Source: Candidatus Shapirobacteria bacterium
GTDB taxonomy: Bacteria; Patescibacteriota; Microgenomatia; UBA12405; BS750m-G30
Direction: 5' to 3'
Assembly: GCA_043817235.1 (NCBI GenBank)
Contig: JBDRHA010000011.1
Span: 191,769 to 255,768, forward strand
DNA: 64,000 nucleotides
Part shown: piece by piece, positions 26,726-51,591 of the stretch
Layout of the letters: the number at the start of each line of letters is the position of its first letter
How positions within the stretch are numbered: the stretch's first letter is position 1
The notes under the pieces: generated by a model
What the model saw: the letters and a program-made list of their open reading frames with translations, nothing else
The model's database searches: none
Told to the model about the DNA's origin: nothing
Made by a program: the position numbers and the translations under genes

Positions 26726-27015
26726 AATTCATATTTCTCCTTTCAATATATTATTGACCAAAAAATCAGATTGCTGAGTGTTTAAAGAAAAATCTTGTTC
26801 GGTTTTTAGGTACAGCTTGGCTAAAACCATTGCTGGTCTTACACCGGCTGCCCATACCCAGTAGTCTCCTGGGAACCTAATAATGATTCCTTATCTTGGG
26901 GTGGGCTTCCCGCTTCAGATGCTTTCAGCGGTTATCCTTTGGAAACATAGCTACCCGGCAATGCTCTTGACAGAACAACCGGTACACCAGAGGTTTCCCC
27001 AACTAGGTCCTCTCG

Positions 27016-27772
27016 TCAACGATCCTCCCATTGCTGGGAGGGTTAGACTATATCTTCATCCCCCGAATACTCGGGGGAGCTTGCCTTATTATGGAGGCTT
27101 TAATTTGCTTTATTTATTAAAGATAAAACACATCCTCCATCTCGTCCCGCAGCTGCGGGACTCAGTCGTTAAAGGGGTATAAGACCTCTTTTGAGAAACT
27201 CCTTGCGAACGTATTCGCAATTATATTTCTTTTTGACAGTTGCATAATTTATCGAAGACAATCTATCTGAAAGTTGACAAACTTCCAGAAATTTCTTCGG
27301 CTTTGGTTTTTTTTGCATAATTGAAATTGCCCTAAGCATTATTTCAACCTGCTTTCTCTTAAAAATGATATAAGGGGTCAACTCTTTAAGGGTTGACCCA
27401 ACAGCTTTGTAGCCTTCAATTCTCAGCTCGGTAATATGATCTTTTCTTCTAGAAAGATAACCAATTCCCAGTTTCTTTCTGATCCAAATAAGACCTTTTT
27501 CGTGCCGGGTATCTTGATAAAAACATATTACGGTTTTTACCCGAAAGCCAAAGCTTACCACCTTACGTGGCTTTAACTGAAGCATAATACTTCCGTCGCC
27601 ATATAAAAAACCAGCAATATATGCTTTTTCTTTTCCTGTCATTGTCAAAAAGTCTTTAACCTTCCCTTGGTATTACCCTCTAAGTCACAAGGACCAACGA
27701 GTTTAATTTTAAAGGGCTTCACCAATTTTAGCAAGTGTGACCTTGGCAATTACTTACCAAGGCAGCATTTAT
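27016..27772 (-). mobile_element. self-splicing (group I-like) intron in 23S rRNA carrying a homing endonuclease ORF
   Basis: exon sequence ...CTACAGT | ACGAGAGGACC... is contiguous in E. coli (AGU/ACGAGAGGACC, approx position 2656/2657) but separated here by ~757 nt; boundaries approximate. Confidence 0.75.
27169..27648 (-). CDS. LAGLIDADG family homing endonuclease (intron-encoded)
   Basis: 159 aa; classic LAGLIDADG motif YIAGFLYGDGSI near the N-terminus; lies entirely within the 23S interruption. Confidence 0.85.
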   Translation of the reverse strand: MTMTGKEKAYIAGFLYGDGSIMLQLKPRKVVSFGFRVKTVICFYQDTRHEKGLIWIRKKLGIGYLSRRKDHITELRIEGYKAVGSTLKELTPYIIFKRKQVEIMLRAISIMQKKPKPKKFLEVCQLSDRLSSINYATVKKKYNCEYVRKEFLKRGLIPL

Positions 27773-30760
27773 CTACTGTAGTCAGCTCCCCTCAAGAATC
27801 AGCGGTTACTGCGGATAGAGACCGAGCTGTCTTACGACGCTCTGAACCCAACTAATGCGGCGCTTTAATGGGCGAACAGACCAACCCTTGGCCACTTCTT
27901 CATGGCCAGGATGCGCCAAGTCGACATCGAGGTGCCGAACCGGGCCGTCTATGTGGACTATCGGGCCCGACCAGCCTGTTATCCCCGGGGTAATTTTTAT
28001 CCGTTAAGCCCCATGTTTAACCATCCAAGCATGGGGGATCACTAAGACCTGCTTTCGCATCTCCTCGCCTTGACGGCGGGTGGTATCACCTTAAACTTTT
28101 CCAGTTCAAATGAGTGAAAAAATAAAAGGATTAACCAGCTCGACTTGTAAGTCTCGCAGTTAGGCTAGCTTTTGGCTTTGTCCTTACGGCTCGGTTTCCA
28201 TCCGAGCTAAGCTAACCTTTGTACGCTCGCGTTACCTTTTAGCAAGCGGCTGCCCCAGCCAAACTGACCACCAAACACTGTTCCCGTCCGAGTGTGCATC
28301 GGACTCAGGTAAGACGTAAACTTGATAAAGGGTGGTATTCCACTGGTGGTCCGACGTAAAGTCGGACCTCCCACCTATTCTCGACAGTTACCAAATTCTT
28401 GTCAATGTTAAGTTTCAGTAAAACTCCACGGGGTCTTTTTGTCCTGCAGTAACTAACCGGCATCTTCACCGGTATTTCAATTTCGCCGGATAAAGGGTCG
28501 AGACAGTTGCTCGGTCGTGAAGCCTTTCATACTGGTCTGAACTTACCAGACAATGGACTTCGCTACCTTTGGATCCTTAGAGTTAGGACCGTCGTTCACC
28601 GGGGCTTCGGTTTGAGGCAGTCCAAGTAAACTTGGATACCCCGCTCCTTGACCTTCCGGCACCGGACAGGCTTCAGCCCCTATACTTCCCCTTACGGGTT
28701 TGCAGAGACCTGTGTTTTTGCTAAACAGTCGCCGAGCAATCTTTCGCTGCGTCCCGCCCAAAGGCGGGAAAGGCATCTCCCTAAGTTACGCCTAGCTTTT
28801 TTGCCGAGTTCCTTGACCCTCCTTCTTCCGATCGTTTTAGTTTACTCAACTTGTCCACCTGTGTCGGTTTTCGGTACGAATATTATTTTTTCTCCCAACG
28901 AAGCTTTTCTTGGTATCTGAACCCAGCGGGATTTCCCAAAACAAGTTTGGGATTCCGGCAAGTCTCACTTAAAACGAAATGGCGGATTTGCCTACCACTT
29001 CTGGCTCAACTAACCGATGCGGCAATTTCACTCACCACACCCCACCTCTCCTGATACGTCCCTCCCTTGGTTATAACGAAAAAATAACAGGGCTGGAATA
29101 TTAACCAGCTGTCCATCCACTACTCCCGACGTAACGTCGGGACTTATGTTAGGATCGCCTAACCCTCAGACGACAAACGTTGCTGAGGAAACCTTGGACA
29201 TTCAACGGTCCAGTTTCTCACTGGACTTACGCTACTCATGCCGGCATTCTCGCTCCCGCCAACTCCACTCCGATTCACATCGGAACTTCACTGTAAGCGG
29301 GACGCTCCCCTACCAACCTCGCCTCCTGGGCAAGAAAATCCTAATTTCTAACCCTTTGTCATCCTGAGCATAGCCGAAGGATCTTTTACTCCCAAAGATT
29401 CCTCGACTTCGCTCGGAATGACAAGGCACAATATTATTTAGAATTTCCCTGTCCAAGAGACAAGATTCTCCGTTGTCGGTGGCCTGCTTTAGCCTCGGTA
29501 AATTTTCGGCGCAGCCTATCCATATCGACCAGTGAGCTGTTACGCTTTCTTTAAAGGGTGGCTGCCTCTAAGCCAACCTCCTGGCTGTCTAGGATCGACT
29601 ACCTCCTTCCCCACTTAGCAAGACACTTAGAGACCTTAAACGGGAGTCTGGGTTGTTTCCCTTTCGCCCAACCAGCTTAGCCCGGCTGGACTGACTGCCT
29701 GATTAATTTACCTGGTATTCGGAGTTTGGTTGAACACCGGAGATTGCTCCCCAGATGCTCATCCAGTCGCTCTACCCCCAAGCAAAACAATATCAGGCGC
29801 TATACCAATATATATTTCGGGGAGAACCAGCTATTTCCGAGTTCGATAAGCATATTACCTCTAACCACAGGTCATCCAAAGAGTTTGCAGCCTCAACTGG
29901 TGCGGGCCTCCGGTCGACTTTCATCGACCTTCACCCTGCCCATGGTTAGCTCACTCGGTTTCGGGTATTCCGCCAGCCGCTAAACGCCTTATTCAGACTC
30001 GGTTTCCCTACGCCTTCCCCCGCAACTGCGAGGTTAAACTTGCGACTAAGACGAAAACTCGCCGGCTCATTCTTCAATAGGCACGACATCAGTCCGACGT
30101 AACGTCGGACCTCTGTCTGTTTGTTAGCAAATAGTTTCAGGTTCTATTTCACTCCCCTCCCGGGGTTCTTTTCACCTTTCCCTCACGGTAATATACGCTA
30201 TCGGTCAGCAAGAGTATTTAGCCTTTCCGGATGGCCCCGGAAGATTCCCACGAAGTTTTGCGTGTTCCGTGGTACTCAGGTGCTCTGGCTCAAACTTAAT
30301 CAAATTTCACCTACAGGGCTTTCACCTTCTTTGGCAAGCCATTTCCAGGCTTTTTGGCTATTTTTTCAGCTCAAGACTATCAGAGTCCTACAACCCCCCG
30401 ACGTTACGTCGGGGTTTGGGCTACTCCCTTTTCGCTCACCGCTACTAAGGGAATTATGGTTATTTTCTTTTCCTCTGGGTACTAAGATGTTTCAGTTCCC
30501 CAGGTTATCCCCCCGCAAATGCGGGGTTTCCGAAATTAACTTCGGAAGGGTTGCCCCATTCGGAAACCGCCGGATCATAGGTTGCAGACACCTACCCGAC
30601 GAGTATCGCCGTCTGCCGCGTCCTTCTTCGACTCTTACCGCCAAGGCATCCACTATTTGCCTTACTACAAGATTTTTTCTTTAATATCAACAATCTGATT
30701 CTTTAGTCAATTACTTTCTAATAAGTTGTCAAGGTGCAGCCTGCCTCACCGGCAGGTGGG

Positions 30761-30835
30761 TGGACCGAAAGGGGTTTGAACCCTTGACCTCCCGGATGCA
30801 AACCGGGTGCTCTAATCCAGCTGAGCTATCGGCCC
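30761..30835 (-). tRNA. tRNA-Ala (anticodon TGC), no encoded CCA
   Basis: manual fold: acceptor GGGCCGA/TCGGTCC with the diagnostic G3:U70 pair, anticodon stem CCCGG/CCGGG with loop TTTGCAT, T-loop TTCAAAC; sits ~60 nt upstream of the 23S 5' end. Confidence 0.85.
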
Positions 30836-31075
30836 GCATTCTAAAACATTAAAAAACCGGGGGGTTAACCCGGCTTCTAATTTCCTAAAATAAAGTCTCT
30901 CTTACATAACCAACATTCTTTTTTTCAAAAAGTTAGTTTGCTTTCTCATTAAGTTGAATTTATTGGCTTTTTATTAGAACCGGGCTCTCGCCCAATTTCC
31001 TTTTTTAAAAAGGATAGCCAATTATATCTAGCTTAAGTTAAATTGTCAAATAGTCTATTTATGCTAGAATGAGGC

Positions 31076-31834
31076 ATGGAATTAAAAGAGATCTTGGCCC
31101 AAAAAACCCTTTTTGCCTTTAATCTGGACGACTTCACCATTTTTAAAGGCATTATCCGTGCCTTAGAGGAAAAAAAATCTCCCGCTATTATCCAATTATC
31201 GGCGGGCGAAGCCAGTTTTTGGGGACTAGAAAATTTTATTCGCTTGGCTAAACCTCTAAAGGATAAAAAAATATTTTTAAACATTGACCACGGCAAAAAT
31301 CTTGAGTTGCTTAAAAAAGCGATTGATTTGGGCTTTGACATGGTTCATTTTGACGGCTCGGCTCTTTCTTGGGAAGAAAATATTAATCTTACAGCCAAAG
31401 CAAGCAAACTTGCTCATTCTCAGGGAGTAATCGCCGAAGGAGAGCCAGAAAGCCAAAATACTAATCCCGCTAAAGTTGCTGAGTTTGTCCGAAAAACCAA
31501 AGTTGACTTGGTCGCTGTTTTCTGCGGCAATAAGCACGGCTTTAACTTGCAAAAGCCGGAAAATCTTAATTTTGAACGATTAAGAGAAATAAAAAAGGCT
31601 GCAAAGCCTGCTCTGCTTGCCCTGCATGGCGGCTCAGGAGTACCCGAAGATCAGATTAAAAAAGCAATTAAAGAAAAACTGATTGCCAAAATTAATATTA
31701 ACAGCGTTTTAAGAGATGCCTATTTTAAAACCCTGAAAAAACAGCTTTCTTGCTATAAGGGAAACAAGGCTTATGATCTTCTTGGGCTGGTAAGCCAGGC
31801 AGTTTCCGAAAAAGCAAACAGTCTGTTAGCATGA
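31076..31834 (+). CDS. fba: class II fructose-bisphosphate aldolase family protein (short form)
   Basis: metal-binding motifs NIDHG, VHFDGS, LHGGSG; TGA stop overlaps the ATG of the downstream pfkB. Confidence 0.75.
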   Translation: MELKEILAQKTLFAFNLDDFTIFKGIIRALEEKKSPAIIQLSAGEASFWGLENFIRLAKPLKDKKIFLNIDHGKNLELLKKAIDLGFDMVHFDGSALSWEENINLTAKASKLAHSQGVIAEGEPESQNTNPAKVAEFVRKTKVDLVAVFCGNKHGFNLQKPENLNFERLREIKKAAKPALLALHGGSGVPEDQIKKAIKEKLIAKININSVLRDAYFKTLKKQLSCYKGNKAYDLLGLVSQAVSEKANSLLA

Positions 31835-32769
31835 ATAATAATTTTGATATTATCGTCTTTGGCTCAGCCACTGTTGATTTTTTTTTAACAAGCAAGTGGT
31901 TTGATCAAAATTTTCACTTGGAAAGCGATGCTAAAATAGATGTTGAGCAAAAACTAGTTTCCGGCGGCGGTGGAGGAACAAATGTAGCCGCAGGCTTATC
32001 TCGTCTGGGTCTAAAAACAGCTTTGGTAGCCCGACTGGGCCAAGATCAGTTTTCTTCCCTAATCTTAGATGAGCTGAAAAAAGAAGGGGTATGCCATCGA
32101 CTAACCAGTGTCTTATCTGGAGAAAAAACTGATTCTTCAATTATTCTGGTTAATCAAAAAGGGAAAAAAGTAATTCTTGTCTCTCGCGGCTTCACTCGTC
32201 TGGAAGCTGAAAATATAAATTGGGAACAGCTAGATGCTTCCTGGTTTCATCTTTCCTCTTTGGAAGGCAATTTAAAGCTTGCCTCTGCCCTGATTAGCTA
32301 CGCCAAGACTAACAATGTCAAAGTTTCCTGGAACCCCGGCTCAAGAGAGCTTCTCCAGAAAGAAAAACTAGCCTCGCTTTTAACCAAAATCCAAATTCTG
32401 ATCTTAAATCAAAAGGAAATAGAAGATTATCTGGATCTAAAAATAACTAATTCTAAATTTTGGCCAGAAGTTTATAAAATAGACTCTCCTTTGATTGCTA
32501 TCACTCAAAATCAAAAAGGCTGTTTTCTAGTCTTTACGAAAGAAAACAGAAAAATTCATCTTGCCGCTGTAAAAACAAAAAATATTGAAGCTACAGGCGC
32601 CGGTGATGCTTTTTGCTCGGGAATAGTGGCAGGCTTATATCATCAAGCGCCTCCCCGGAAAGCAGCTCTTTGGGGACTGGCCAATGGTGCCTCGGTAGTT
32701 TCTTATTTTGGCGCAAAAACCGGCCTGCTTACCAAGAAGGGAATAAAAAAATGGTTGAAAAAACTTTAG
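31831..32769 (+). CDS. PfkB-family carbohydrate kinase (ribokinase-like; possibly a phosphofructokinase given the adjacent aldolase)
   Basis: N-terminal GG-dipeptide region GGGGTNVAAGLSRLG and C-terminal ATP-binding motif ATGAGDAFCSGIVAGL. Confidence 0.75.
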   Translation: MNNNFDIIVFGSATVDFFLTSKWFDQNFHLESDAKIDVEQKLVSGGGGGTNVAAGLSRLGLKTALVARLGQDQFSSLILDELKKEGVCHRLTSVLSGEKTDSSIILVNQKGKKVILVSRGFTRLEAENINWEQLDASWFHLSSLEGNLKLASALISYAKTNNVKVSWNPGSRELLQKEKLASLLTKIQILILNQKEIEDYLDLKITNSKFWPEVYKIDSPLIAITQNQKGCFLVFTKENRKIHLAAVKTKNIEATGAGDAFCSGIVAGLYHQAPPRKAALWGLANGASVVSYFGAKTGLLTKKGIKKWLKKL

Positions 32770-35857: not shown

Positions 35858-35920
35858 CGCGGCTATAAAAGAGCTTCTTTCTCATTATAGCCTTCGCCAA
35901 AAAAAAATAATATAGGGAAT

Positions 35921-35990: not shown

Positions 35991-36132
35991 GAACATAGAT
36001 CAATTGCTTTAGTTAAGCTCAAAATATCTTGAGGATTAGCATGAATAATTGCAAAAGGAATTAGTTGACTGACGCGACGTAACTAAAGAAAAATTATCAG
36101 GAATATAAAGGGCTAATCTTTCAGGCGCTTCT

Positions 36133-37878: not shown

Positions 37879-37886
37879 TAGCTATA

Positions 37887-40135: not shown

Positions 40136-41977
40136 TTAAGACTGATTTGAAGAAGCGGCCTCTTGTTCCTTTTTTCTTTCTAAAAGCTCTCGGGGGTCGG
40201 AAGTAATCAGTTTATGCTCCTGGGGCGAAGCAATTACTTTAATAGCCACATGATTTTGGCCGGCAAAGAAAATTCCCTCCCCTATATTTGCCGCCAGTAA
40301 ATACTGCCTTTCTCCCTGAGAAAGGTAAAAAAGATCTCCTACTTGGTCAATAGCTGCCGCATGTTGTTTTAGTAAAATTTGAATAGATGAATTCTTAACA
40401 ATTGCCCCGCCATATTTGGAATTAATAAAGTCGTCCACGTCTTGAGTAATCGTGGTTAAGCCTAAATAATACTTTCGCGCCCTTTTGGCAATACCGTAAA
40501 GAAAAAGAGCTGAGTCCGGATAGCGCATCAAATACCAAGCCTCATCAATTACTAAAACTCTTTTTTTCATCTCTCGCCGGATTTTATTCCAAATAAAATC
40601 CAAAATGATATGCATGGCAATCGGCCGCAAGGCTTCTTCTAGGTCTCTAGTGCCAAAAACGACCAGTTTGTTTTGAATGCTAATATTTGTTTGGGTATTA
40701 AAAAGGCCGGCAAAAGCACCCTTAATAAATTTTTCTAGTCTTGCGGCCAAGGAAGCGGCCAAGTCTTCCTCCATGCCAATAAGTACTTTATAAAGATCTT
40801 CAATTAAGGGCATCTCTTTGTCTTTCTGAGTATCCGGATCCAAAGTTATCCCTTGGTTTTTATATGTAGCTACTAAAGCGCGATCCAAAATTGCTTCTTC
40901 TTGAGGAGACATTTTGCCCATGATAATCCTAAAGAGAGCGTATAAAGAAAGAATTTTCCGTGTCAGCTCATTTTCTCCTTCTTGGGTTTGCACTAGCTCC
41001 AAATCAAAAGGATTAATTTTGGCCTGAGAACTAAAGCCAAAGGTAATATATTGGCCGCCGAGCGCCTGACATAGGGTCTCATACTCATTTTCCGGGTCAA
41101 TAACCATCACCTCTGTATCAAACATCAAAGAGCGCAAAGTTTCTAGTTTAACCAAATAGCTTTTGCCAGCACCGGATTTAGCAAAAATTATACTATTAAA
41201 ATTCTCCATAGAAAAACGGTCAAAAACCACCAAAGAACCATTATGCTGATTTAAACCGAAAAGCACTCCTTTATCATCTGAAAGCTCGGAAGAAACAAAG
41301 GGGAAAGTAGTAGACAAAGTTGAGGTAGGCATATTGCGAGTGACATTGAGCTCGTCTTTACACAAAGGCAAAATAGTTTTAAAGCCCTCCTCCATTTCCA
41401 AAATTGCGGCTTTAGGGATAATCATTAAAGCTCCCAGGGAAGCTTGAAGCTCTTTGCTCATTCGCTCCAGCTGGGCCAAAGAATCAGCCGAAACAGTGAT
41501 ATAGAGCCCAAATTGGAAAAACTTTTCTACCCCCTTGGCCAGCTTTTCCTGAATAGCTAAAGCGTCTTCTAATTTTGCCTGAGTAGTCGGGTCAACTACT
41601 TTTCCCCGTTGAATGTCGGTGGAAATTTCCGCCTCCATCCGGGCAATGGTTTTGCGCATCTCGTCTAGGACTCCCCGGCCCTCTACCGGATAAATATACA
41701 TCGCAATATCCAGCTCCTGGTCAAAATTAACCAAGGGCGAGAGCCAATTAGGCGAAACATAACGAGGGTAATTAACTACATAAAAAGTGCGATAATATCG
41801 GCTATTAATCCGCAAAGTAGTCCAATCTACTTCAACAGCCGAAGGAGCAATAACATCTTTAATGCTCACCAGTCCCGGGGACATCGGTGTAGCTTCCGCT
41901 TGCTTTTCGGGTGCTTCCTTTTGCTGGCTGATTTTTTTTATTTGCTCGCTAGCCTTTTTCCAAAAATCAAGCTTCAT
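40136..41977 (-). CDS. VirB4/TraC-family type IV secretion ATPase (AAA-like, DUF87)
   Basis: Walker A FAKSGAGKS, Walker B VLVIDEAW; N-terminal region YYRTFYVVNYPRYV resembles the CagE/TrbE/VirB4 N-domain; 613 aa. Confidence 0.7.
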   Translation of the reverse strand: MKLDFWKKASEQIKKISQQKEAPEKQAEATPMSPGLVSIKDVIAPSAVEVDWTTLRINSRYYRTFYVVNYPRYVSPNWLSPLVNFDQELDIAMYIYPVEGRGVLDEMRKTIARMEAEISTDIQRGKVVDPTTQAKLEDALAIQEKLAKGVEKFFQFGLYITVSADSLAQLERMSKELQASLGALMIIPKAAILEMEEGFKTILPLCKDELNVTRNMPTSTLSTTFPFVSSELSDDKGVLFGLNQHNGSLVVFDRFSMENFNSIIFAKSGAGKSYLVKLETLRSLMFDTEVMVIDPENEYETLCQALGGQYITFGFSSQAKINPFDLELVQTQEGENELTRKILSLYALFRIIMGKMSPQEEAILDRALVATYKNQGITLDPDTQKDKEMPLIEDLYKVLIGMEEDLAASLAARLEKFIKGAFAGLFNTQTNISIQNKLVVFGTRDLEEALRPIAMHIILDFIWNKIRREMKKRVLVIDEAWYLMRYPDSALFLYGIAKRARKYYLGLTTITQDVDDFINSKYGGAIVKNSSIQILLKQHAAAIDQVGDLFYLSQGERQYLLAANIGEGIFFAGQNHVAIKVIASPQEHKLITSDPRELLERKKEQEAASSNQS

Positions 41978-42716
41978 TTTCCTCCTTTTCCTCTCCTTCT
42001 TTTTTCTTTTTATCTCTCATTAAAACTAGAGGAACTTCGCCTTCCTTTAAGGGGAGCTCCGAGGTATTAATTTTTTCCTGATTATAAATACTGTAGAAAA
42101 AACCTACTAACTGAGCAGTAGTCAACTGTCGAGCGCGCAGCCCCAAGCTTCCTAAAGCCCGAACAACATGCTCTTTTTTGGGCTCCAAATTTGCTTTGGC
42201 TCGTTCAATAATCGCTCTTTTTTCCAAAGGCAAAGCCTGCACTTCTTCCTTGGGCTTAAAAAAAGAAAAAAGAGGAATACTGTTTTTGGCCGCGGCCAGC
42301 CCCAGCTCCAGACTGGAAAAAGGAACAGCAACATAAAAAGACTTGGTCAAAACATTATTTTTCTCTACCATCTGAGAAACAAACTGGCGGTAATGGGCAA
42401 TTTGTTTTCTCGCTAAAGAATCGGTCTTTTTTTGCTCCCAAGAAAGGAGATAATCAAGGTAAGAACTAACATCTTTAAGTGCCGAGTGAATGAAAATTTG
42501 CAAAGGAAAAGACAAGGAATTGAGCAAGGAAGCATAAGCATAAATCATTGCCTCCTGCTCTCGCTCAGAAAGGAGGTCAAAATTAACAGAGGACACTTCA
42601 AAAACATAAGCACAAGAGCCATCTTTAAGAATGACCATATTTTGAGCAATATCCTCAATCGGCAAATATTCTTGGGTAGTTCCTTTAAGAGCTTTTTTCT
42701 TTAAATCCATGGGCAA
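41967..42716 (-). CDS. T4SS-associated protein resembling a VirB4 N-terminal domain (possible split VirB4 or accessory subunit)
   Basis: segment MVILKDGSCAYVFEVSSVNFDLLSEREQEAMIYAYASLLNSL matches the CagE/TrbE/VirB4 N-domain pattern; overlaps the ATPase start by 11 nt. Confidence 0.4.
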   Translation of the reverse strand: MPMDLKKKALKGTTQEYLPIEDIAQNMVILKDGSCAYVFEVSSVNFDLLSEREQEAMIYAYASLLNSLSFPLQIFIHSALKDVSSYLDYLLSWEQKKTDSLARKQIAHYRQFVSQMVEKNNVLTKSFYVAVPFSSLELGLAAAKNSIPLFSFFKPKEEVQALPLEKRAIIERAKANLEPKKEHVVRALGSLGLRARQLTTAQLVGFFYSIYNQEKINTSELPLKEGEVPLVLMRDKKKKEGEEKEENEA

Positions 42717-42725
42717 GTTTTATTT

Positions 42726-43580
42726 TTATGCCAACGCCGTCTTTTTCGCTTGAATCTGTAATGGGGGAATAATTTTCCCTTTGGTCTCAATTTTAATTAT
42801 AGCAAAAGAAAAAGGCTCTTTTTCCACCAAAACTAAATATTGACCATTTGGCAAGGGGGTAGCTGTTTGAAACTGTCCTAAAGAATTAGAGCGCATTGCT
42901 CTAATTGGATTGCCCTCTAAGTCTTGAATCTCCACAATTGCTCCCTCCAAAGTCCTGCCTTCCAGATCCATTATCAAACCATTAATTATATTGGGAACCG
43001 TGGGAGTAGCCGGAAGAGATATTTTTAAATACTCCGGAGAGCTGGACTCCAGTTTTTGCTTTGGTGTATTTTTCCTAATCATTTGAATGATTTCGTCCGA
43101 AGAAGGGCTCCCCTCTTTTTCTGAAGGTGGCAAAATTGTTTCTTGTTTTTCTTTTTCCTGAACGACTGGGGCGGGCGGAATAACCCTTTTTTCCGGTACT
43201 TTTGGCGTCTTAGCCGGATTTTCTACCGGAGTAGAAAGAACCTGGCTAAAAACCGGCACAGGGGTCGGCTTGTAAAAAGAATATTTGGGGAAAAAGGGCT
43301 TTTTCCAAATAAATACAGTGGGAGAATAAGCCGCCCGAAAAAAAGAAACCAGCCAGTATTCCAAGGGCCTGTCGTTAAAAGGCAGAAAGGCTGTCCCTAT
43401 CCCCAACAAAAGAATAGCCAAGCTCAAAGGAAAACGCAAAACAGAAGTCAGGCCAGAATGAAAAAGCAAATAGGCAAAGACAACCCCCGCTGCTAGTTTT
43501 AAAAATTGGTTTAAAGTCATGCTTCCTACTAAACGAAATTCGTAAGAGGATATTTCTTGTGGTATTGGGTACTGGTTCAT
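42726..43580 (-). CDS. VirB3-like membrane protein with Pro/Thr-rich linker and C-terminal carboxypeptidase-regulatory-like beta-sandwich domain
   Basis: two N-terminal TM helices immediately upstream of VirB4 (position typical of VirB3/PrgI); C-terminal LEGAIVEIQDLEGNPI...GQYLVLVEK resembles a CarbopepD_reg fold. Confidence 0.45.
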   Translation of the reverse strand: MNQYPIPQEISSYEFRLVGSMTLNQFLKLAAGVVFAYLLFHSGLTSVLRFPLSLAILLLGIGTAFLPFNDRPLEYWLVSFFRAAYSPTVFIWKKPFFPKYSFYKPTPVPVFSQVLSTPVENPAKTPKVPEKRVIPPAPVVQEKEKQETILPPSEKEGSPSSDEIIQMIRKNTPKQKLESSSPEYLKISLPATPTVPNIINGLIMDLEGRTLEGAIVEIQDLEGNPIRAMRSNSLGQFQTATPLPNGQYLVLVEKEPFSFAIIKIETKGKIIPPLQIQAKKTALA

Positions 43581-43645
43581 CTTTAAACTAATACTACAGC
43601 AAGCTCAAAGCTGATTCAATAATAATCTAGTGTTAAAATACAAGT

Positions 43646-44546
43646 ATGAGTAATTCCTTGCTGATTATTGATGCTCATGCGGTTCTGCATCGGGCCTTTC
43701 ATGCCCTGCCTCCTCTAACAAATAAACAAAGAGAGCCTGTGGGGGCAGTTTTTGGTTTTTTTTCGGTTTTACTTTCCACCTTAAAAAAAATTAAGCCCCG
43801 AAAGCTGGCTATTTGCTTTGACTCTCCCGGGCCAACTTTCCGCCACAAGCTTTTTATCGGCTACCAATCTAAAAGACCGATCACCGAAGACCGCCTGGTC
43901 AGCCAAATCAAAAAAACAAGAAAGTTAGTGGCTGAATCTGGTCTGGCCTATTTTATCAAAAGCGGCTTTGAAGCAGACGACCTTGTCGCTTCTTTGGCTA
44001 AAAAAAACCAAGCCTCAAAAATTTATATCCTAACTGGCGACAAAGATCTAATGCAATTAGTAGATAAAAAAGTTAACTTGCTGCTTATGGGCCGGCAGAT
44101 GAATAAACTTACGAAAGTTAATTCCCAGGAGGTAAAAAAAAATATTAGGAATCAAGCCTTCGCAGGTAGTTGATTTTAAAGCCTTAAGCGGTGATCCTTC
44201 AGATAACTATCCGGGAGTTTATGGAGTTGGCCCAAAAACTGCTTCCAGCTTGTTGGAAAAATTTCAAAATTTTGACAATGTTTATCAAAACCTAAACAAA
44301 CTACCGGATGCTCTTAAAATGAAACTAAAAAAAGGCAAAGAAGCGGGCGAGCTTTCTTATAGGTTAGCTAAAATTGATAATCAAACGCCAATCAAACTAA
44401 AAGGCAAGCAATTAGCTTGGAAAAATGCTAAAATAAAAGAGTTAAAAGAGGTTTTGGCAAAGGAAAGCTTTCCCTCTTTAGTCAAAAGAATAGAAAAAGA
44501 CTTTGGCTTAATAAAGAAAGAAAACTGCCAGCAGAAACTACTGTGA
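43646..44546 (+). pseudogene. 5'-3' exonuclease (Pol I N-terminal/FEN-like), +1 frameshift next to an A9 tract near 44128-44142
   Basis: frame A encodes LLIIDAHAVLHRAFHAL...DDLVASLAKK...ILTGDKDLMQLV; after GTAAAAAAAAATATTAGG the H3TH continuation IKPSQVVDFKALSGDPSDNYPGVYGVGPKTA... is in another frame; removing one A restores a ~300-aa protein. Confidence 0.7.
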
Positions 44547-45451: not shown

Positions 45452-45463
45452 AAAAAAGGAACA

Positions 45464-46699
45464 TCACTCCTCGCTGGCAATTTTGCCTAACTGGATATAG
45501 CCCCATGTTCTTCGCGGATGATCTTTATTGAATTTCTTTACCCAAGCTAAAAAATCATGACTGTCGCCATAAACCAATACCCTAAGATTGCCTTCAGCTT
45601 CCGAATCAGTGACTCGTCTGATTGCTTCAATTTCCCGTCGCTCAAATACATAATTTCTTTTATTTTTATTAAAAGCAGACACAGTCTCATTAAATTGCCT
45701 AATTAAATCTTTGTTTGCGGGATCGGAAGCTAAATTTCTTTTTGCGTCTAACATATCCTGAAGCAGTTTTACCGCTTGCTCGTTTAGTTCTGTTGACTCT
45801 GCAGGCTTGACATTAATTTTACCATCCATGTGTAGCCTAGTTGTTGCCAATAATGAAGAACGCACATCCTGAAAGCCGTACCGAGATAAATATTGACCAA
45901 TATTTTTTAAGGCTTCTCCTATATAATTCCTAACATGTATTATAGGCTCAACAATTTGTTCATTAGCTCCTGATATTTTATTCAAAGGAGGAATTTCTAA
46001 ATCTGGATTATTATTTATAAAATTTTCGGCCCGAGCAAGATAGTCTTCGAATGCATAGTAAACAGCCCCCCTCAAATAACTATATGGTTCCTCTGCCAGG
46101 CCTGTAATGTCTTTGGAGACTGCAGCTGAGGAAAACAGTTGCAGCTCAATTCTTTTTAAATATTCTAACCGATGATATATAGAAGCAATATCCAAATTTT
46201 CTGTTTCCAAGACCTGCTTAAGCTCCCTTAATAAATCTAAATCAGTAATCGAACTATCAGATACGCCTTCGGAAAAGACTGTTTTTATTCCTTTATTTCT
46301 GATAATTTCTGCAATTATATTTTCAATAATATTTTGGGAGCTCATGAATTCTGCATTGCCACTTTTATGCACATCTTGAATAAATGGATTATAATGTGTT
46401 TGGCCAATAACCAAGATATAATCACTGCCCCCATTCGGATTATGTTCAAAATTTTCTATATTAAAGCCGCTTTTTTGTAGTTCTTTTTCATCTAAGCCGG
46501 TAATCTCGCTAAATGATCTTGTGTTTACAGCTTCAGCTGTGGAGGCACCCACAGGTCTAGCCAGCTGAGGAATTAGAGCTAAAACAGCAAAATCTCTTGC
46601 TATATGAAGAAACTGCCTTCTAGATATTTTTGGCAATTCCCGAGAGGCTCCATTTGCAGTATTAGCTGAAGAAGTGCTTTCGTTACCAATCTCAGACAT
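45464..46699 (-). CDS. secreted hypothetical protein with twin-arginine (Tat) signal peptide
   Basis: ISRRQFLHIARDFAVLALIP matches the S/T-R-R-x-F-L Tat consensus followed by a hydrophobic h-region; 411 aa; no recognisable catalytic motif. Confidence 0.45.
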   Translation of the reverse strand: MSEIGNESTSSANTANGASRELPKISRRQFLHIARDFAVLALIPQLARPVGASTAEAVNTRSFSEITGLDEKELQKSGFNIENFEHNPNGGSDYILVIGQTHYNPFIQDVHKSGNAEFMSSQNIIENIIAEIIRNKGIKTVFSEGVSDSSITDLDLLRELKQVLETENLDIASIYHRLEYLKRIELQLFSSAAVSKDITGLAEEPYSYLRGAVYYAFEDYLARAENFINNNPDLEIPPLNKISGANEQIVEPIIHVRNYIGEALKNIGQYLSRYGFQDVRSSLLATTRLHMDGKINVKPAESTELNEQAVKLLQDMLDAKRNLASDPANKDLIRQFNETVSAFNKNKRNYVFERREIEAIRRVTDSEAEGNLRVLVYGDSHDFLAWVKKFNKDHPRRTWGYIQLGKIASEE

Positions 46700-46738
46700 A
46701 GCTTAATTATGAAGCAAGTTTTTAAAAATTGTCAAATA

Positions 46739-47161
46739 TCAGGCAGAAATAATTTTTTTTGGCTCCAGTCTTTTTATTTTCAGCTTATCAAAATCCTTGT
46801 CATAAGAAACAATTGTCCATTTTCCCGTTTGGATTTCTTTAATCGAAGCAAGTAGAGCATCAATGTATTTAACCTTCTTGCTCTCAAATAACTGCAAAGC
46901 CAATAAATGATCATACTTATCCATAATATTTAAACCCTTCAGGTTCAATATTCCCCTTACCGACAAAGCTACTTTTCTCGGAGCAAATTCATAGTATGAA
47001 GAAAGCGCCCAAGCAATTTCCGCTAAAACCAAACTGGCAGTTATGGCTTTAATCTTGCCCGCTTTTACCTTTTGCAAAAACCGCAGGCAATCATTAAACA
47101 CAGCTTCATTCTCTTTTATTAAAACTCTAAGAAATATATTAGTGTCAATAAAATATTTCAT
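46739..47161 (-). CDS. vapC: PIN-domain toxin VapC
   Basis: start taken at MKYFIDTNIFL (conserved Asp of PIN domain); ~140 aa; immediately downstream of an AbrB/SpoVT-type antitoxin gene. Confidence 0.7.
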   Translation of the reverse strand: MKYFIDTNIFLRVLIKENEAVFNDCLRFLQKVKAGKIKAITASLVLAEIAWALSSYYEFAPRKVALSVRGILNLKGLNIMDKYDHLLALQLFESKKVKYIDALLASIKEIQTGKWTIVSYDKDFDKLKIKRLEPKKIISA

Positions 47162-47162
47162 A

Positions 47163-47405
47163 TTAAAAGCGCTTATAAATTTTCTCCATCTTGGAGCGTG
47201 CTTCAAGAACCCCTTTTTTCTTGGAAGATTTAAGCGAGCCAGCTAAGTCTAAAATATCAATTTTCTTTTTAATTCTAATCAATTTTTTCTTTCTATCTAC
47301 CAGCTCCAATAGAAAACTGCCCGGTTCCTTAAGATCCAACAAATCCCTTATTTCCTTGGGTAAAGTCATTTGCCACTTTTTGGTAATCGTAGTACTTTGC
47401 AACAT
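47163..47405 (-). CDS. vapB: AbrB/MazE/SpoVT-family antitoxin VapB
   Basis: 80 aa; swapped-hairpin motif TKKWQMTLPKEIRDLLDL. Confidence 0.65.
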   Translation of the reverse strand: MLQSTTITKKWQMTLPKEIRDLLDLKEPGSFLLELVDRKKKLIRIKKKIDILDLAGSLKSSKKKGVLEARSKMEKIYKRF

Positions 47406-47602
47406 AGTAAGTCATTCTACTAGCGTATTACGGACTTGTCAAGTATTAACTCCCCCGATAAGTTTTTTTTGGTAGAATTTGGAATTAGAATGATTAATTC
47501 GAGTAAACTTTATGATTTATATTTGAAGCTATATAAAAAACACAGTAATCCAGAGAAGTATTGGCCTCAAGTGGTGCTCAAAGAGTAATCTATCTCTCTT
47601 TT

Positions 47603-47628
47603 GTTTTAATGTTTTAAAACATTAAAAC
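47603..47628. repeat. perfect 26-bp palindrome GTTTTAATGTTTTAAAACATTAAAAC
   Basis: self-complementary; 20 nt downstream of the aldehyde dehydrogenase stop and ~200 nt upstream of vapB. Confidence 0.6.
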
Positions 47629-47646
47629 AATACGATGGACGCGCCT

Positions 47647-49026
47647 TTATTTCTCAAAAGCGACAACTTTTATCTTGCAAAGATCACGAAGACCATATTT
47701 TCCATGTTCTCGGCCAATACCCGATAATTTGTTTCCGCCGAAAGGATTACAAGGAAGAAGATAACTAACGGAATTAATATTTACCATGCCGGTATTAATC
47801 GCTTTCGCTACTCTTTCCGCTCTTCTTTTATCTTTGGTAAAAATATATCCCCCTAAGCCATATTGGGTGTCATTTGCTAAATCAATGGCCTCTTTTTCAG
47901 TTTTAAAAGGAACAATTGGCAAAACTGGCCCAAAAACTTCTTCTTGCCAAACTTTCATCTTTTTATTTACTCTTGTTAATAAGGTAGGTAGATAATAAGC
48001 GCCTTTTAATCCTTTTGGCTTATTGCCTCCAGTTATTACTTCTGCCCCTTTATTCAAGGCGTCTTTAACTTGCTCTTCCAGCGTTTTTAATTGCTTTCGA
48101 GAGACTAAAGGACCGATTTCGGTAGCGGGATTCTGTGGGTCACTGACTTTTTTGTCTTCCAGCATTTTCTTCAAGGCTTTAACTACTTGATCAAACTTAC
48201 TTTGGTGAGCAATTAATCTTTTTAAGCCGTCACATATCTGCCCGCAATTGCCAAATCGATTAATCCAGACTGACTCTACTACTTTATCAATATCGGCATC
48301 AGCAAAAACTATTCCAGGAGCAGAACCGCCCAATTCTAAAATTACTTTTATAAATTTTTTGGAGGCTACTTGATAAAGATATTGCCCAACTTTGGCACTC
48401 CCGGTAAAGCAAATTAAATCTATGCCCTGATGAACCAAAAAGTTACCAACTTCACCGTCGCCATAAATTTCTGAAAATACCCCCTTGGGTAGTTTGCACG
48501 ATCTAATTATATTTTCGTAAAGTTTTCCAGAAAGGGGACATTCTTCAGAATGTTTAAATATAACAGTATTGCCAGCTATTAAATTAGGGATAACTCCCCA
48601 GATGAAATTACAAAAAGGAAAATTCCAGGGAACAATAACTCCCGCTACTCCTATTGGCTCAAAAAAAACCTTATGGACCGCTCTTTTATCTTCAAAAGTT
48701 ACTTCGGGAGCAAGATATTTTTCGGCGTTATCCAAATACCACTTAAAGTAATCCAGACCCGCGTTTATATCAATAACTTCCCTATCTTGGAACATCATCC
48801 CTATTTCTCTGGTAGCCAATTCTCCAATCTCCGCTTTCTTTTTAGAAAAGGCAACATAGATTCGCTTAAGAAATCTTATCCTCTCTTTTACACCTAAGCT
48901 TTTCCAATTATTATGTGCTTTTTCCGCTTGGTCAACCTTTTGCTTTATTTCTCTCTTTGAAGATATTTCTATTTCCCCAACAATCTCGTAATTCCTCCCG
49001 GGGTTAGCGGAAACTAATTTAGCCAT
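47647..49026 (-). CDS. NAD(P)-dependent aldehyde dehydrogenase
   Basis: 459 aa; ALDH catalytic region ELGGSAPGIVF (Glu active site) and FGNCGQICDGLKR (catalytic Cys). Confidence 0.8.
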   Translation of the reverse strand: MAKLVSANPGRNYEIVGEIEISSKREIKQKVDQAEKAHNNWKSLGVKERIRFLKRIYVAFSKKKAEIGELATREIGMMFQDREVIDINAGLDYFKWYLDNAEKYLAPEVTFEDKRAVHKVFFEPIGVAGVIVPWNFPFCNFIWGVIPNLIAGNTVIFKHSEECPLSGKLYENIIRSCKLPKGVFSEIYGDGEVGNFLVHQGIDLICFTGSAKVGQYLYQVASKKFIKVILELGGSAPGIVFADADIDKVVESVWINRFGNCGQICDGLKRLIAHQSKFDQVVKALKKMLEDKKVSDPQNPATEIGPLVSRKQLKTLEEQVKDALNKGAEVITGGNKPKGLKGAYYLPTLLTRVNKKMKVWQEEVFGPVLPIVPFKTEKEAIDLANDTQYGLGGYIFTKDKRRAERVAKAINTGMVNINSVSYLLPCNPFGGNKLSGIGREHGKYGLRDLCKIKVVAFEK

Positions 49027-49053
49027 TAGATTATTTTATCATGGCAAAAAAAG

Positions 49054-49127
49054 TGGACGCGCCAGGACTCGAACCTGGGACCTCTTGCTCATAAGGCAAG
49101 CGCTCTCACCGACTGAGCTACGCGTCC
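49054..49127 (-). tRNA. tRNA with anticodon TAT (UAU; tRNA-Ile reading AUA), no encoded CCA
   Basis: manual fold: acceptor GGACGCG/CGCGTCC, D-arm GCTC..GAGC, anticodon stem CTTGC/GCAAG with loop CTTATGA, T-arm CCAGG TTCGAGT CCTGG; 74 nt. Confidence 0.7.
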
Positions 49128-49177
49128 AAATAACGAATTAGCTTCGTGTAATCCTTCGGATTATATCAAATTTTAGC

Positions 49178-49206
49178 TTGACGAATAGATATTTTTAGGT
49201 TATCAT
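49178..49206 (+). promoter_or_regulatory. candidate sigma-70 promoter for 16S rRNA: -35 TTGACG (49178-49183), 17-nt spacer, -10 TATCAT (49201-49206)
   Basis: consensus-like hexamers with optimal spacing ~110 nt upstream of the 16S 5' end; a second weaker TTGACA at 49242. Confidence 0.45.
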
Positions 49207-49314
49207 AAAGATACTTCGGTTAGCAGTTACTAGAAAGCACCTTGACAATTTATAGGCATTAATTTTTTGAGCACAGATTATCTGCAGCAGGAAGTCAAAT
49301 TTGTAATTAGTTTT

Positions 49315-50782
<1,468 letters not shown>

Positions 50783-50895
50783 AAAGGATTTTCCCCGCAG
50801 TTGCGGGGCAGACTTCTCTGCTGCAGGTAATTTGTGAATTTCAAAAATTAAAAATAAAATGCCCAAAAAAAAAACGGGTTGGTCAGTTTTACTCC

Positions 50896-51591
50896 TTGGA
50901 TCCCGAAAATATTCCCCAGCACATTGCAATAATTATGGACGGCAACCGCCGCTGGGCGAGAAAAAAAGGATTAACCCCCACGCAAGGCCATCGGGCTGGC
51001 GCCAAAAACTTAGTCGATTTAGTTGACCATTGCGAAAAACTCGGCGTCAAACTTCTAACGGTCTATGCTTTATCTACGGAAAATTGGAAAAAGAGAGCCA
51101 AACAAGAGGTCCGAGGCATTTTTGGCTTGCTGATTAAAATTGCCGAAGAAAAAAAAGAAGATTACCAAAAAAGAGGAATTAGATTTTTTGTTTTAGGCAA
51201 TTTCCAGGCTTTTCCCTTAAAAGTCAAACGGGCCATTAGCGAAATTCTTAATATTGTTAAAAAACACGAACGATTAAAGTTTAACGTTGCCCTAAATTAC
51301 GGCGGGCGGGACGAAATAGTCCGGGCGGTTAAAAATATTGTTAAAGACGGGGTACGGCCGAATAAAATAAACGAAAAATTAATTGCCAAATACCTATATA
51401 CTAACGGCCAGCCAGACCCGGATTTGGTAATCAGAACCGGCGGGGAAATAAGAATTTCTAATTTCCTGCTTTGGCAGCTTTCTTACTCCGAGCTTTATTT
51501 TACTAATGCTTTATGGCCGGATTTTGGGCCAAAAAGACTGGAAGAAGCGATTAAAGAATACCAAGAAAGAAGCCGGAGATTTGGTCAGTAG
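50896..51591 (+). CDS. uppS: undecaprenyl-diphosphate synthase (cis-prenyltransferase)
   Basis: HIAIIMDGNRRWA and RTGGEIRISNFLLWQLSYSELYF motifs; 231 aa. Confidence 0.9.
   Translation: MDPENIPQHIAIIMDGNRRWARKKGLTPTQGHRAGAKNLVDLVDHCEKLGVKLLTVYALSTENWKKRAKQEVRGIFGLLIKIAEEKKEDYQKRGIRFFVLGNFQAFPLKVKRAISEILNIVKKHERLKFNVALNYGGRDEIVRAVKNIVKDGVRPNKINEKLIAKYLYTNGQPDPDLVIRTGGEIRISNFLLWQLSYSELYFTNALWPDFGPKRLEEAIKEYQERSRRFGQ

Follow-up and report, generated by a model that had tools for sequence, protein, structure and literature searches.

Complete dispersal of rrs, rrl and rrf, each with a separate promoter, occurs in Leptospira interrogans and likewise in the archaeon Thermoplasma; both are unrelated non-CPR organisms that are not known to carry rRNA introns, and their 5S locus is known. 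[quoted passage not shown] 2020), so that the initial annotation of the present locus, which had presented the separation of all three rRNA genes as notable, overstated the case. In CPR genomes of this kind, several kilobases that include protein genes separate 16S from 23S, tRNA-Ala remains beside 23S, and the two rRNA genes sometimes occupy opposite strands (Brewer et al. 2020; PMC8172020); the locus described here shares all of these features. The 5S gene in the PMC8172020 data set is nearly always found 55-314 bp from 23S, and all three genes are unlinked in one of the 36 genomes of the S1 Table, a Microgenomatia genome (2,882 bp). In the reduced or host-associated genomes of Rickettsia, Wolbachia, Buchnera and Helicobacter pylori, 16S is transcribed separately from 23S (PMC8172020) and there is a separate processing stem for each precursor (H. 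pylori maturation, PMC6582327), as would be the case at our locus; however, these bacteria retain the 23S-5S pair, whereas here rpsA directly follows 23S. LAGLIDADG_1 introns at 23S position 2657 also occur in CPR (Tsurumaki et al. 2024, PMC11270868). Previous publications have described the unlinked CPR rRNA genes (Brewer 2020; Lui 2021) as well as site 2657 as an intron position (Tsurumaki 2024), and the sole new detail, a modest one, is the clade-wide loss of 23S-5S linkage.

Organization of the 16S and 23S rRNA loci

The window, i.e. the whole 64-kb stretch of DNA that was analyzed, originates from a MAG of Candidatus Shapirobacteria (CPR/Patescibacteria, Microgenomates), which bears out an earlier reading of the sequence as that of a reduced, symbiont-like lineage. 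The S1 and UppS proteins of the window are 100% identical to the NCBI proteins MFH1602156.1 and MFH1602175.1, both from a MAG of Candidatus Shapirobacteria in which a single contig of 336,659 bp encodes them. The set of five Shapirobacteria-like genomes compared here includes the window and L038, L040, L047 and L046, whose S1 proteins are 79%, 73%, 68% and 62% identical to that of the window, respectively. A more distant CPR genome, L041, has a 16S gene with merely 74% identity to the window 16S.

The ancestral rRNA operon has very probably been broken into independent units in this genome. The first unit, on the minus strand, consists of a promoter-like site, tRNA-Ala(UGC), a boxA-like element and 23S, followed by rpsA. 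The second unit lies 18.6 kb away on the plus strand in divergent orientation and consists of a promoter-like site, a boxA-like element and 16S, followed by uppS. The genes of both units and their neighbor are as follows:

25610-26725, minus strand: rpsA (ribosomal protein S1), Pfam S1 domains; 73 nt past the 23S 3' end
26799-30671, minus strand: 23S rRNA locus, 3.9 kb
30759-30835, minus strand: tRNA-Ala(UGC), ARAGORN and Rfam (65.7 bits); 87 nt upstream of 23S and co-oriented with it
49053-49127, minus strand: tRNA-Ile(UAU), ARAGORN (anticodon tat) and Rfam tRNA (77 bits); divergent from 16S
49315-50780, plus strand: 16S rRNA, uninterrupted, 1360.7 bits over positions 1-1533 of the Rfam model SSU_rRNA_bacteria
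50896-51591, plus strand: uppS (undecaprenyl diphosphate synthase), Pfam Prenyltransf (E 2.7e-81)

The 5' ends of 16S and 23S, on opposite strands, are separated by 18,643 nt, which contain about 18 protein genes in either orientation. Unlinked genes were defined by a 16S-23S distance of more than 1.5 kb (Brewer), or by a distance above 2 kb that includes genes of the other strand, or by location on opposite strands (Lui), meaning that genes too distant or wrongly oriented cannot share a transcript; in both distance and orientation, the window pair is unlinked. The two units would be transcribed separately, with each precursor cut at its own stem.

Most gene positions given in the initial annotation were recovered. 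It had placed 16S at 49315-50782 with uppS about 110 nt further on, and we found 50780 as the 16S end and a uppS start 115 nt past it; for 23S (26795-30700, minus strand) the coordinates were essentially right, with the 3' end set at 26799 by a sub-window Rfam scan. The 16S 3' end bears the anti-Shine-Dalgarno sequence CCUCC, the uppS product and the 231-aa protein annotated at NCBI are identical, and the 16S-uppS adjacency is kept in L043, L044 and L045. ARAGORN, Rfam and the sequence itself, in which the G3:U70 pair is seen, agree with the annotated tRNA-Ala ahead of 23S, and its position next to 23S is kept in L038, L040, L047 and L041. The 240 nt upstream of tRNA-Ala, annotated as empty, indeed contain no rRNA or tRNA gene, and the FBA gene, divergent from tRNA-Ala, starts at 31076. 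The reported lack of tRNA-Ile stands for the operon-type tRNA-Ile(GAU), which is absent across the 64-kb window by ARAGORN and Rfam, but not for tRNA-Ile(UAU), which lies within the span, 187 nt upstream of 16S on the opposite strand, and has an identically positioned counterpart in L044.

Ribosomal RNA genes are well known as places where metagenome assemblies break or are misjoined. Given that the window derives from a MAG and that related contigs break inside rRNA genes (L043 terminates within 16S), the separation might be an artefact of assembly or binning that conceals one linked operon in the true genome. We regard this as very improbable, because both junctions were also found in assemblies made independently from different samples and species: L037, L038 and L039 share the PBP-Bla-PfkB-FBA / tRNA-Ala-23S-S1 junction, and L044 and L045 share the VirB4-TraC-PrgI-exo-TK / tRNA-Ile(TAT) / 16S-uppS junction. 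Misassembly, raised as an alternative in the initial annotation, is therefore excluded at both rRNA junctions. Furthermore, each rRNA has its own processing helix with strands that flank that gene alone, and the 23S-S1 spacer is too small for a 5S gene in all five Shapirobacteria-like genomes.

Loss of 23S-5S linkage

As annotated previously, the window has no detectable 5S gene: Rfam at the gathering score, Rfam at E<=5 and an nhmmer --max profile gave no match in 64 kb, including the 33 kb upstream of 23S (Rfam, nhmmer). None was detected in the 26.7 kb that follow 23S or the 13.2 kb that follow 16S, and a 5S gene would have to be separated from the respective 3' ends by more than these distances. 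With any 5S more than 2 kb from 23S, the genome would belong to the subtype 'Unlinked 16S, 23S and 5S' (Lui et al. 2021). The 23S gene adjoins rpsA without 5S, at a spacer of about 70-90 nt, in all five Shapirobacteria-like genomes, and the flanks of 23S (about 10 kb) in L038, L040, L046 and L047 also lack 5S. Separation of 23S from 5S is the less common part of the arrangement, and here it is a clade trait; both the absence of 5S within 26.7 kb in the window and the 23S-rpsA abutment in five of five genomes set this group apart from the genomes of PMC8172020. L041 has its 5S between 23S and rpsA. The 5S-binding protein bL25 is encoded in L046, which argues that the clade still possesses 5S, and the gene would then sit elsewhere in the genome. 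Absence of 5S from the window and from the flanks of about 10 kb in the relatives suggests three separate rRNA loci.

A 5S gene beside 23S or elsewhere in the window could have diverged or shrunk beyond what the models detect, since CPR 5S is often shortened to 105-110 nt (PMC9297842), yet there is very little chance of this: the Rfam model scores the 5S of L041, itself a CPR sequence, at 63.5 bits and detects nothing in the window at E<=5, nhmmer --max matches the L041 gene alone, and most of the 73-nt 23S-S1 spacer is taken up by one strand of the long processing helix (its 3' strand) and the S1 ribosome-binding site. The initial annotation had assigned this spacer to the processing helix entirely, which is largely so apart from the ribosome-binding site.

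Possible origin of the arrangement

Gene order in L041 is 16S-[one ORF]-tRNA-Ile(GAU)-tRNA-Ala-23S-5S-S1. The order 16S-Ile-Ala-23S-5S-rpsA, kept in this distant genome, is probably ancestral. An intermediate state is represented by L040/L043, where 16S-uppS-...-tRNA-Ala-23S-S1 lie on a single strand, 16S is about 9.0 kb away from 23S, and the flanking genes have homologues in the window. In the S1 Table of PMC8172020, several Microgenomatia genomes have 16S and 23S 8-9 kb apart, which matches the 9.0 kb of L043. Starting from 16S-tRNA-Ile-tRNA-Ala-23S-5S-rpsA, genes would have been inserted between 16S and tRNA-Ala, and the ancestor of the Shapirobacteria may have lost 5S from between 23S and rpsA or moved it away. 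In the window's own sublineage, a single inversion could then have turned the blocks of 16S and 23S against each other, a scenario that depends on the region upstream of 16S, where the L040-type contig ends.

A probable group I intron in the sarcin-ricin loop of 23S

The 23S locus reaches 3.9 kb because it includes a probable group I intron of 758 nt with a LAGLIDADG homing endonuclease ORF. This intron (27017-27774) had been overlooked, so that the earlier reading of the whole span as rRNA does not hold although its coordinates do. The locus is composed of the following parts, all on the minus strand:

27775-30671, minus strand: 23S exon 1, from the 5' end through U2656 (E. coli numbering), Rfam LSU_rRNA_bacteria (2160 bits)
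27017-27774, minus strand: probable group I intron, 758 nt, splitting the sarcin-ricin loop at U2656/A2657
27169-27642, minus strand: LAGLIDADG homing endonuclease ORF, 157 aa, single motif, inside the intron
26799-27016, minus strand: 23S exon 2, A2657 to 3' end, sub-window Rfam and BLAST

The 23S match of the whole-window Rfam scan ends at 27773, and the exon 1 terminus (...GACUACAGU) was set by alignment to the intronless 23S of L038 and L040. BLAST alignment to the same two genes picks up again at 27016, and the LSU match of the sub-window Rfam scan reaches 26799, equivalent to model position 2912 of 2925. Intron boundaries were set by four intronless alleles, which read ACAGT|ACGAGAGGACC (L038, L040, L046 and L047), and by a homologous intron of 756 nt at the same insertion site in L041. 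When joined, the exons give ACAGUACGAGAGGACC, an exact match to the four intronless relatives. The 5' exon ends in U (...CAGU), the intron ends in G (...GUUG), and intron bases 9-12 (GCUG) are able to pair with the exon CAGU as a candidate P1 helix. The Rfam model Intron_gpI (RF00028) covers 27024-27133 with 36.4 bits (E 1e-6), below its gathering score of 50, with a good fit both at P7/J8-7, GAUGAAGAUAUAGUC, and at the P9 hairpin.

The intron ORF is a predicted single-motif LAGLIDADG homing endonuclease. It matches Pfam PF00961 (LAGLIDADG_1) with 28.1 bits versus a cut-off of 23.1, carries the motif YIAGFLYGDGS, and has more than 1200 homologues, many of them named Patescibacteria or Parcubacteria LAGLIDADG endonucleases. 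Homology to I-CreI and I-MsoI is full-length, the best single-copy chains giving E-values of 1e-17 (I-CreI) and 1e-16 to 1e-14 (I-MsoI). The ORF thereby resembles the homodimeric enzymes I-CreI, I-MsoI and I-CvuI of green-algal chloroplast 23S introns, which are about 155 aa long with one LAGLIDADG motif. Their target site is L2593, while the window intron lies at 2656/2657, so that the predicted enzyme must have another target specificity. The intron position matches the CPR insertion site '2657' (23IS14), where introns likewise are group I-like, interrupt U2656/A2657 and carry an ORF of about 157 aa with one LAGLIDADG_1 domain (PMC11270868). I-ShaI of Shapirobacteria, which was assayed biochemically, belongs to 23IS7 (PMC11270868), in contrast to the predicted enzyme of the window at 23IS14.

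With the sarcin-ricin loop, the most conserved loop, broken by 758 nt and the Rfam intron score under its gathering score, this 23S copy might be taken for a decaying pseudogene with a functional copy elsewhere. Such decay is hard to reconcile with two exons that match the model over their full length, as they do the intronless relatives at 78-92% identity, or with a base-precise insertion that follows a U at -1, ends in G, offers a candidate P1 pairing and has a conserved GAUGAAGAUAUAGUC core. The insertion retains an undamaged endonuclease ORF, both the processing helix and the tRNA-Ala/rpsA context are intact and conserved, and the insertion site has already been catalogued as a CPR 23S intron site (PMC11270868), which leaves the pseudogene a most unlikely explanation. 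For a functional 23S, the intron would have to self-splice to restore the loop needed by elongation factors, and it may spread through endonuclease-driven homing.

Promoter-like sites, boxA-like elements and processing helices

Each unit is equipped with its own set of putative transcription and processing signals:

31021-31049, minus strand: promoter-like site TTGACA-17-TATAAT of the tRNA-Ala-23S unit, 12/12 consensus matches
30852-30878, minus strand: terminator-like GC hairpin and U run from a pattern scan, between the promoter-like site and tRNA-Ala
30726-30737, minus strand: boxA-like element GCACCTTGACAA, between tRNA-Ala and 23S
30673-30712, minus strand: 23S processing helix, 5' strand, pairs with 26752-26793
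26752-26793, minus strand: 23S processing helix, 3' strand, pairs with 30673-30712
49178-49206, plus strand: promoter-like site TTGACG-17-TATCAT of the 16S unit, 10/12 consensus matches
49237-49248, plus strand: boxA-like element GCACCTTGACAA, in the 16S leader
49271-49312, plus strand: 16S processing helix, 5' strand, pairs with ~50796-50837 (core 49283-49297 with 50811-50826)
50796-50837, plus strand: 16S processing helix, 3' strand, from duplexfold

Both promoter-like sites were assigned by consensus alone, and the one upstream of 16S is in line with the separate 16S promoter proposed in the initial annotation. The boxA-like element GCACCTTGACAA or close variants occur in all ten leaders examined, ahead of both 16S and 23S. 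Exact copies or variants with 1-2 changed bases are located 47-84 nt upstream of 23S in L038, L040, L046, L047 and L041; in the 16S leaders, the motif is identical to that of the window in L044 and L045, and L041 has the variant TGTTCTTTGACAA. These elements resemble the E. coli rrn boxA, TGCTCTTTAACAA, and would recruit Nus-type antitermination, in which boxA binds NusB/NusE to suppress termination.

The flanks of 23S pair with a predicted energy of -42.4 kcal/mol compared to -11.4 +/- 2.7 in shuffles (RNA duplexfold), and those of 16S with -48.6 compared to -19.4 +/- 3.4 kcal/mol (duplexfold). Judged by their pairing, these long flank helices, one per rRNA, appear to be of the kind that RNase III cleaves. 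Equivalents of the 23S helix were found in L038, L040 and L047, and the 16S helix is conserved in L044.

rRNA and tRNA genes of the window

The whole window contains five Rfam matches, comprising one bacterial 23S rRNA, one 16S rRNA and three tRNAs.

Coordinates, strand and source of the rRNA and tRNA genes
22615-22691, plus strand: tRNA-Val(GAC), ARAGORN
27773-30671, minus strand: 23S rRNA as reported by the whole-window scan, Rfam
30759-30835, minus strand: tRNA-Ala(TGC), ARAGORN
49053-49127, minus strand: tRNA-Ile(TAT), ARAGORN
49315-50780, plus strand: 16S rRNA, Rfam

The initial annotation described unlinked 23S and 16S genes on opposite strands, 18.6 kb apart, with neither a 5S nor a tRNA-Ile. 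The rRNA finding is real and its coordinates are almost entirely accurate; the 23S 3' end, placed there at 26795 and thus ~1 kb past the end of the whole-window match, is reached to within a few bases (26799) when 26600-28600 is scanned alone. The 5S claim also holds for the 64-kb window, where no 5S was detected by Rfam at the gathering score, by Rfam with relaxed filters at E<=5, or by an nhmmer --max search. The nhmmer profile combined the 5S of L041, a distant genome of the CPR (Patescibacteria), with three textbook 5S sequences, and it recovered the L041 5S with an E-value of 6e-28. The AT-rich leader of ~185 nt that separates tRNA-Ala from the consensus promoter was rejected as a degenerate 5S, having neither the 5S hallmark motifs nor a model match. 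The tRNA-Ile, by contrast with that description, is present on the minus strand at 49053-49127 and had been missed.

This tRNA adjoins the 16S and carries the anticodon UAU (Ile, AUA codon), as does its counterpart at 8166-8240 (minus strand) in the related locus L044. The usual AUA-reading tRNA-Ile has a CAU anticodon modified by TilS. Position 37 is G in the window (loop CUUAUGA) and the expected A in L044 (CUUAUAA). Decoding by tRNA-Ile(UAU) has been documented in Mycoplasma mobile, which is without tilS (PMC3575796).

Conservation of the layout and break-up of the rRNA operon

Both rRNA junctions recur in independent assemblies of relatives. Three loci (L037, L038 and L039; S1 79% identical) share the order PBP, beta-lactamase-like, PfkB and FBA, followed by divergent tRNA-Ala, 23S and S1, the rpsA product. 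Two others (L044 and L045; UppS 85% and 16S 90.9% identical) carry VirB4, TraC, PrgI, 5'-3' exonuclease and transketolase; an oppositely oriented tRNA-Ile(TAT) comes next, ahead of 16S and uppS, the gene for undecaprenyl diphosphate synthase. Since these assemblies derive from other samples, the chimeric join that had been raised as an alternative is excluded at either rRNA locus.

Leptospira and Thermoplasma are further known cases in which the rRNA genes are fully dispersed. Patescibacteria have been described as an exclusively unlinked cluster (Brewer et al., bioRxiv 10.1101/705046), and 16S and 23S were unlinked in 27 of 34 circularised CPR genomes (Lui, Nielsen and Arkin, PMC8172020). In the latter study the two genes lay 8-9 kb apart in several Microgenomatia genomes and on opposite strands in two genomes; the 23S-5S distance was 55-314 bp in nearly all genomes, and all three rRNA genes were unlinked in one Microgenomatia genome (2,882 bp; both S1 Table). 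The 16S/23S separation in the window is thus ordinary for the group, and its layout, in a lineage now identified as Candidatus Shapirobacteria, is an instance of a published pattern. The less common part is the absence of 5S near the 23S, and its clade-wide conservation is a modest addition. The finding is mainly useful for annotation and as a lineage marker.

The genomes form a series of states. The 615-kb CPR chromosome L041, only distantly related to the window, has the order 16S, one opposite-strand ORF, tRNA-Ile(GAU), tRNA-Ala(UGC), 23S with two introns, 5S (63.5 bits) and S1, which is close to canonical with rpsA directly after. In L040/L043 (S1 73%) all genes lie on one strand in the order 16S, uppS, two pilin, two ATP-grasp, 7TM_transglut, two ORFs, tRNA-Ala, 23S and S1, with 16S and 23S separated by ~9.0 kb and 5S absent; L047 (S1 68%) has the same layout as far as its contig reaches. 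In L046 (S1 62%) the 23S immediately precedes S1, with no tRNA-Ala and no 5S. The window and L038/L044 contain the same two blocks in opposite orientation. Downstream of uppS the window has two T4SS pilin genes, RimK, ATPgrasp_ST, 7TM_transglut and ORFs of 642 and 550 aa, in the order of the genes found between 16S and tRNA-Ala in L040 and L047. Homologues of 7TM_transglut and of the 550-aa ORF were confirmed by tblastn; no match was obtained for the 642-aa ORF. A single inversion of the block from FBA to the 550-aa ORF would turn the co-linear layout into that of the window, a step that we infer, since the L040-type contig breaks off within its 16S.

The spacer from the 23S 3' end to the S1 start measures ~70-90 nt in the window and in four Shapirobacteria-like relatives, and no 5S was detected within ~10 kb in any of the five. 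Its absence from this spacer in all five indicates that 5S left the spacer before the lineages diverged. Because the 5S-binding protein bL25 is encoded in L046, a 5S very likely persists elsewhere in the genomes of this clade; for the same reason, the extreme version of a clade lacking any canonical 5S is very improbable indeed. The six genomes form a small evolutionary series of rRNA operon decay in reduced genomes, from linked to spaced on the same strand to inverted, with 5S lost from the 23S-rpsA spacer. Profiling based on 16S-ITS-23S amplicons or operons cannot capture this clade.

A group I intron in the 23S sarcin-ricin loop

The initial annotation overlooked a group I intron in the 23S locus.

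Parts of the 23S locus
27775-30671, minus strand: first 23S exon
27017-27774, minus strand: intron, 758 nt
27169-27642, inside the intron: LAGLIDADG ORF of 157 aa, Pfam LAGLIDADG_1 above threshold
26799-27016, minus strand: second 23S exon

When 26600-28600 was scanned alone, the 23S match continued past a long interruption to 26799, corresponding to model position 2912 of 2925. An Intron_gpI match at 27024-27133 scored 36.4 bits (E ~1e-6), below the Rfam gathering score of 50. BLAST alignments with the 23S of L038 and L040 stop at window position 27774 and restart at 27016, at the same base of the relative. The intron span was set by four relatives with an intronless sequence at the site (L038, L040, L046 and L047) and by L041, whose homologous intron of 756 nt occupies precisely this site. 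The junctions read ...GACUACAGU / AGAUAAAUGCUGCC ... GGAUCGUUG / ACGAGAGGACC, the 5' exon ending in U and the intron in G, and intron GCUG can pair with exon CAGU as a candidate P1 helix. When the exons are joined, the universal sarcin-ricin loop sequence AGUACGAGAGGACC is re-formed, with a predicted spliced junction ACAGU/ACGAGAGG. These four features fit a group I intron. In E. coli numbering, the insertion point falls between U2656 and A2657.

The endonuclease has more than 1200 homologues, many of them from Patescibacteria, and gives full-length alignments with I-CreI and I-MsoI, the best single-copy chains of I-CreI reaching E 1e-17. Position 2657 of 23S (23IS14) is one of the CPR sites with LAGLIDADG_1 group I introns (Tsurumaki et al. 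2024, PMC11270868). The window intron matches 23IS14, whereas I-ShaI, a different Shapirobacteria enzyme with demonstrated endonuclease activity, belongs to site 23IS7 (PMC11270868). The window and L041 endonucleases share 74% identity, as against 44.5% for S1 and 74.4% for 16S, values that fit horizontal intron spread by homing. A 3.9-kb CPR "23S" here conceals a mobile intron in the sarcin-ricin loop, and standard whole-window rRNA scans cut the 23S short at it.

Other 23S insertions were also noted. Compared with the Rfam model, the window 23S carries an extra 76 nt at ~28070-28145 (minus strand), near model position 2386; this insertion is common to L038 and L040, absent from L041, and probably an expansion particular to the lineage or an intervening sequence. 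A second group I intron, above the Rfam threshold at 63 bits, is found in L041 at 8874-9119 (plus strand), and in L038 the 5' half contains two shorter insertions (6677-6850 and 7135-7303). Intron content thus varies freely among close relatives.

Promoter-like sites, boxA-like motifs and processing helices

Candidate signals of the two rRNA units
31049-31021, minus strand: promoter-like TTGACA-17-TATAAT of the 23S unit, perfect consensus match
30878-30852, minus strand: strong terminator-like hairpin with U run (GCCGGG...CCCGG), between the 23S-unit promoter and tRNA-Ala
30737-30726, minus strand: boxA-like GCACCTTGACAA, a candidate antitermination motif between tRNA-Ala and 23S
49178-49206, plus strand: promoter-like TTGACG-17-TATCAT of the 16S unit, 10 of 12 consensus positions matched
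49237-49248, plus strand: boxA-like, same motif as in the 23S unit, ahead of 16S

The 23S unit is ordered as promoter-like site, hairpin, tRNA-Ala, boxA-like motif and 23S. The boxA-like motif, which resembles E. coli rrn boxA, occurs unchanged or as a close variant in all ten 16S and 23S leaders examined. As a -35 box, CCTTGACAA upstream of both rRNAs was rejected, no acceptable -10 following it; it is better regarded as an antitermination element because it is kept in all leaders and resembles boxA. The flanks of each rRNA form a long processing helix, at -42.4 kcal/mol for 23S (shuffles -11.4 +/- 2.7) and -48.6 kcal/mol for 16S (shuffles -19.4 +/- 3.4), and equivalent helices are present in relatives.

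Judged by these motifs and predicted folds, the two units probably carry the marks of self-sufficient rRNA precursors. Each would be transcribed from its own promoter-like site, with Nus-dependent antitermination at the boxA-like motifs, RNase III cleavage of each precursor at its own helix and splicing of the 23S intron from the precursor. Terminator-like hairpins resembling that of the window also stand ahead of the boxA-like motif in the 23S leader of L046 and the 16S leader of L041; the window hairpin may serve as an insulator or attenuator, or mark where a short RNA ends.

Protein genes following the rRNAs

Each of the six CPR genomes examined has rpsA directly after 23S (window spacer 26726-26798), or after 5S in the case of L041, an adjacency extending to a genome with only 74% 16S identity; uppS directly follows 16S (window spacer 50781-50895) in four of the six. 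In the 23S processing helix, the 3' strand stops 27 nt short of the S1 start codon. Pattern scans of both spacers revealed no terminator-like site between 23S and rpsA or between 16S and uppS, so co-transcription of the protein genes with rRNA is possible. Together, the adjacencies and the position of the helix end suggest possible mixed rRNA-mRNA transcripts. A cut at the 23S helix would then release the S1 mRNA and tie S1 synthesis directly to rRNA transcription. A fuller reading, which we offer as tentative and rather doubtful, is that the Shapirobacteria clade has dismantled the operon completely, each large rRNA being the first gene of a mixed RNA-protein operon and 5S solitary and far away, with tRNA-Ala-23S-rpsA and 16S-uppS read through as single transcripts and S1 mRNA freed at the 23S helix. 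If rpsA and uppS are co-transcribed in this way, a ribosomal protein and a cell-wall lipid-carrier enzyme would be unusually coupled to rRNA output.

Lineage and gene content

S1 (25610-26725, minus strand) shares 100% identity with NCBI MFH1602156.1, and UppS (50896-51591, plus strand) with MFH1602175.1; both NCBI proteins are encoded on one 336,659-bp contig labelled "MAG: Candidatus Shapirobacteria bacterium". A search of genome contigs with S1 peptide patterns of low complexity yielded distant relatives alone, 25-38% identical, e.g. Akkermansia and Flavobacteriales. The gene content of the window fits a CPR genome, in that type IV secretion-like VirB4/TraG and PrgI occur with many T4SS pilin paralogues, alongside a pyruvate:ferredoxin oxidoreductase, two penicillin-binding proteins of class A and a transketolase with the pyrimidine-binding and C-terminal domains only.

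Two regions of ~1.1 kb each (9661-10755 and 17277-18401) have no Pfam-matching ORF above ~120 aa and no Rfam match. The 5'-3' exonuclease, a single 299-aa gene in L044, occupies two plus-strand ORFs at 43646-44173 (N-terminal domain, 175 aa) and 44250-44546 (SAM-fold part, 98 aa), which could reflect a frameshift, a pseudogene or a sequencing error. The type IV secretion-like regions (40136-43580, 51600-52670 and 61764-63700, all minus strand) flank the 16S block, and this synteny is kept in relatives. The secretion cluster consists of a VirB4/TraG-like ATPase, PrgI and a 249-aa ORF in the position taken by a TraC-like gene in L044. Pfam scoring identified at least four small T4SS_pilin paralogues, and similar-sized ORFs continue up to 63700.
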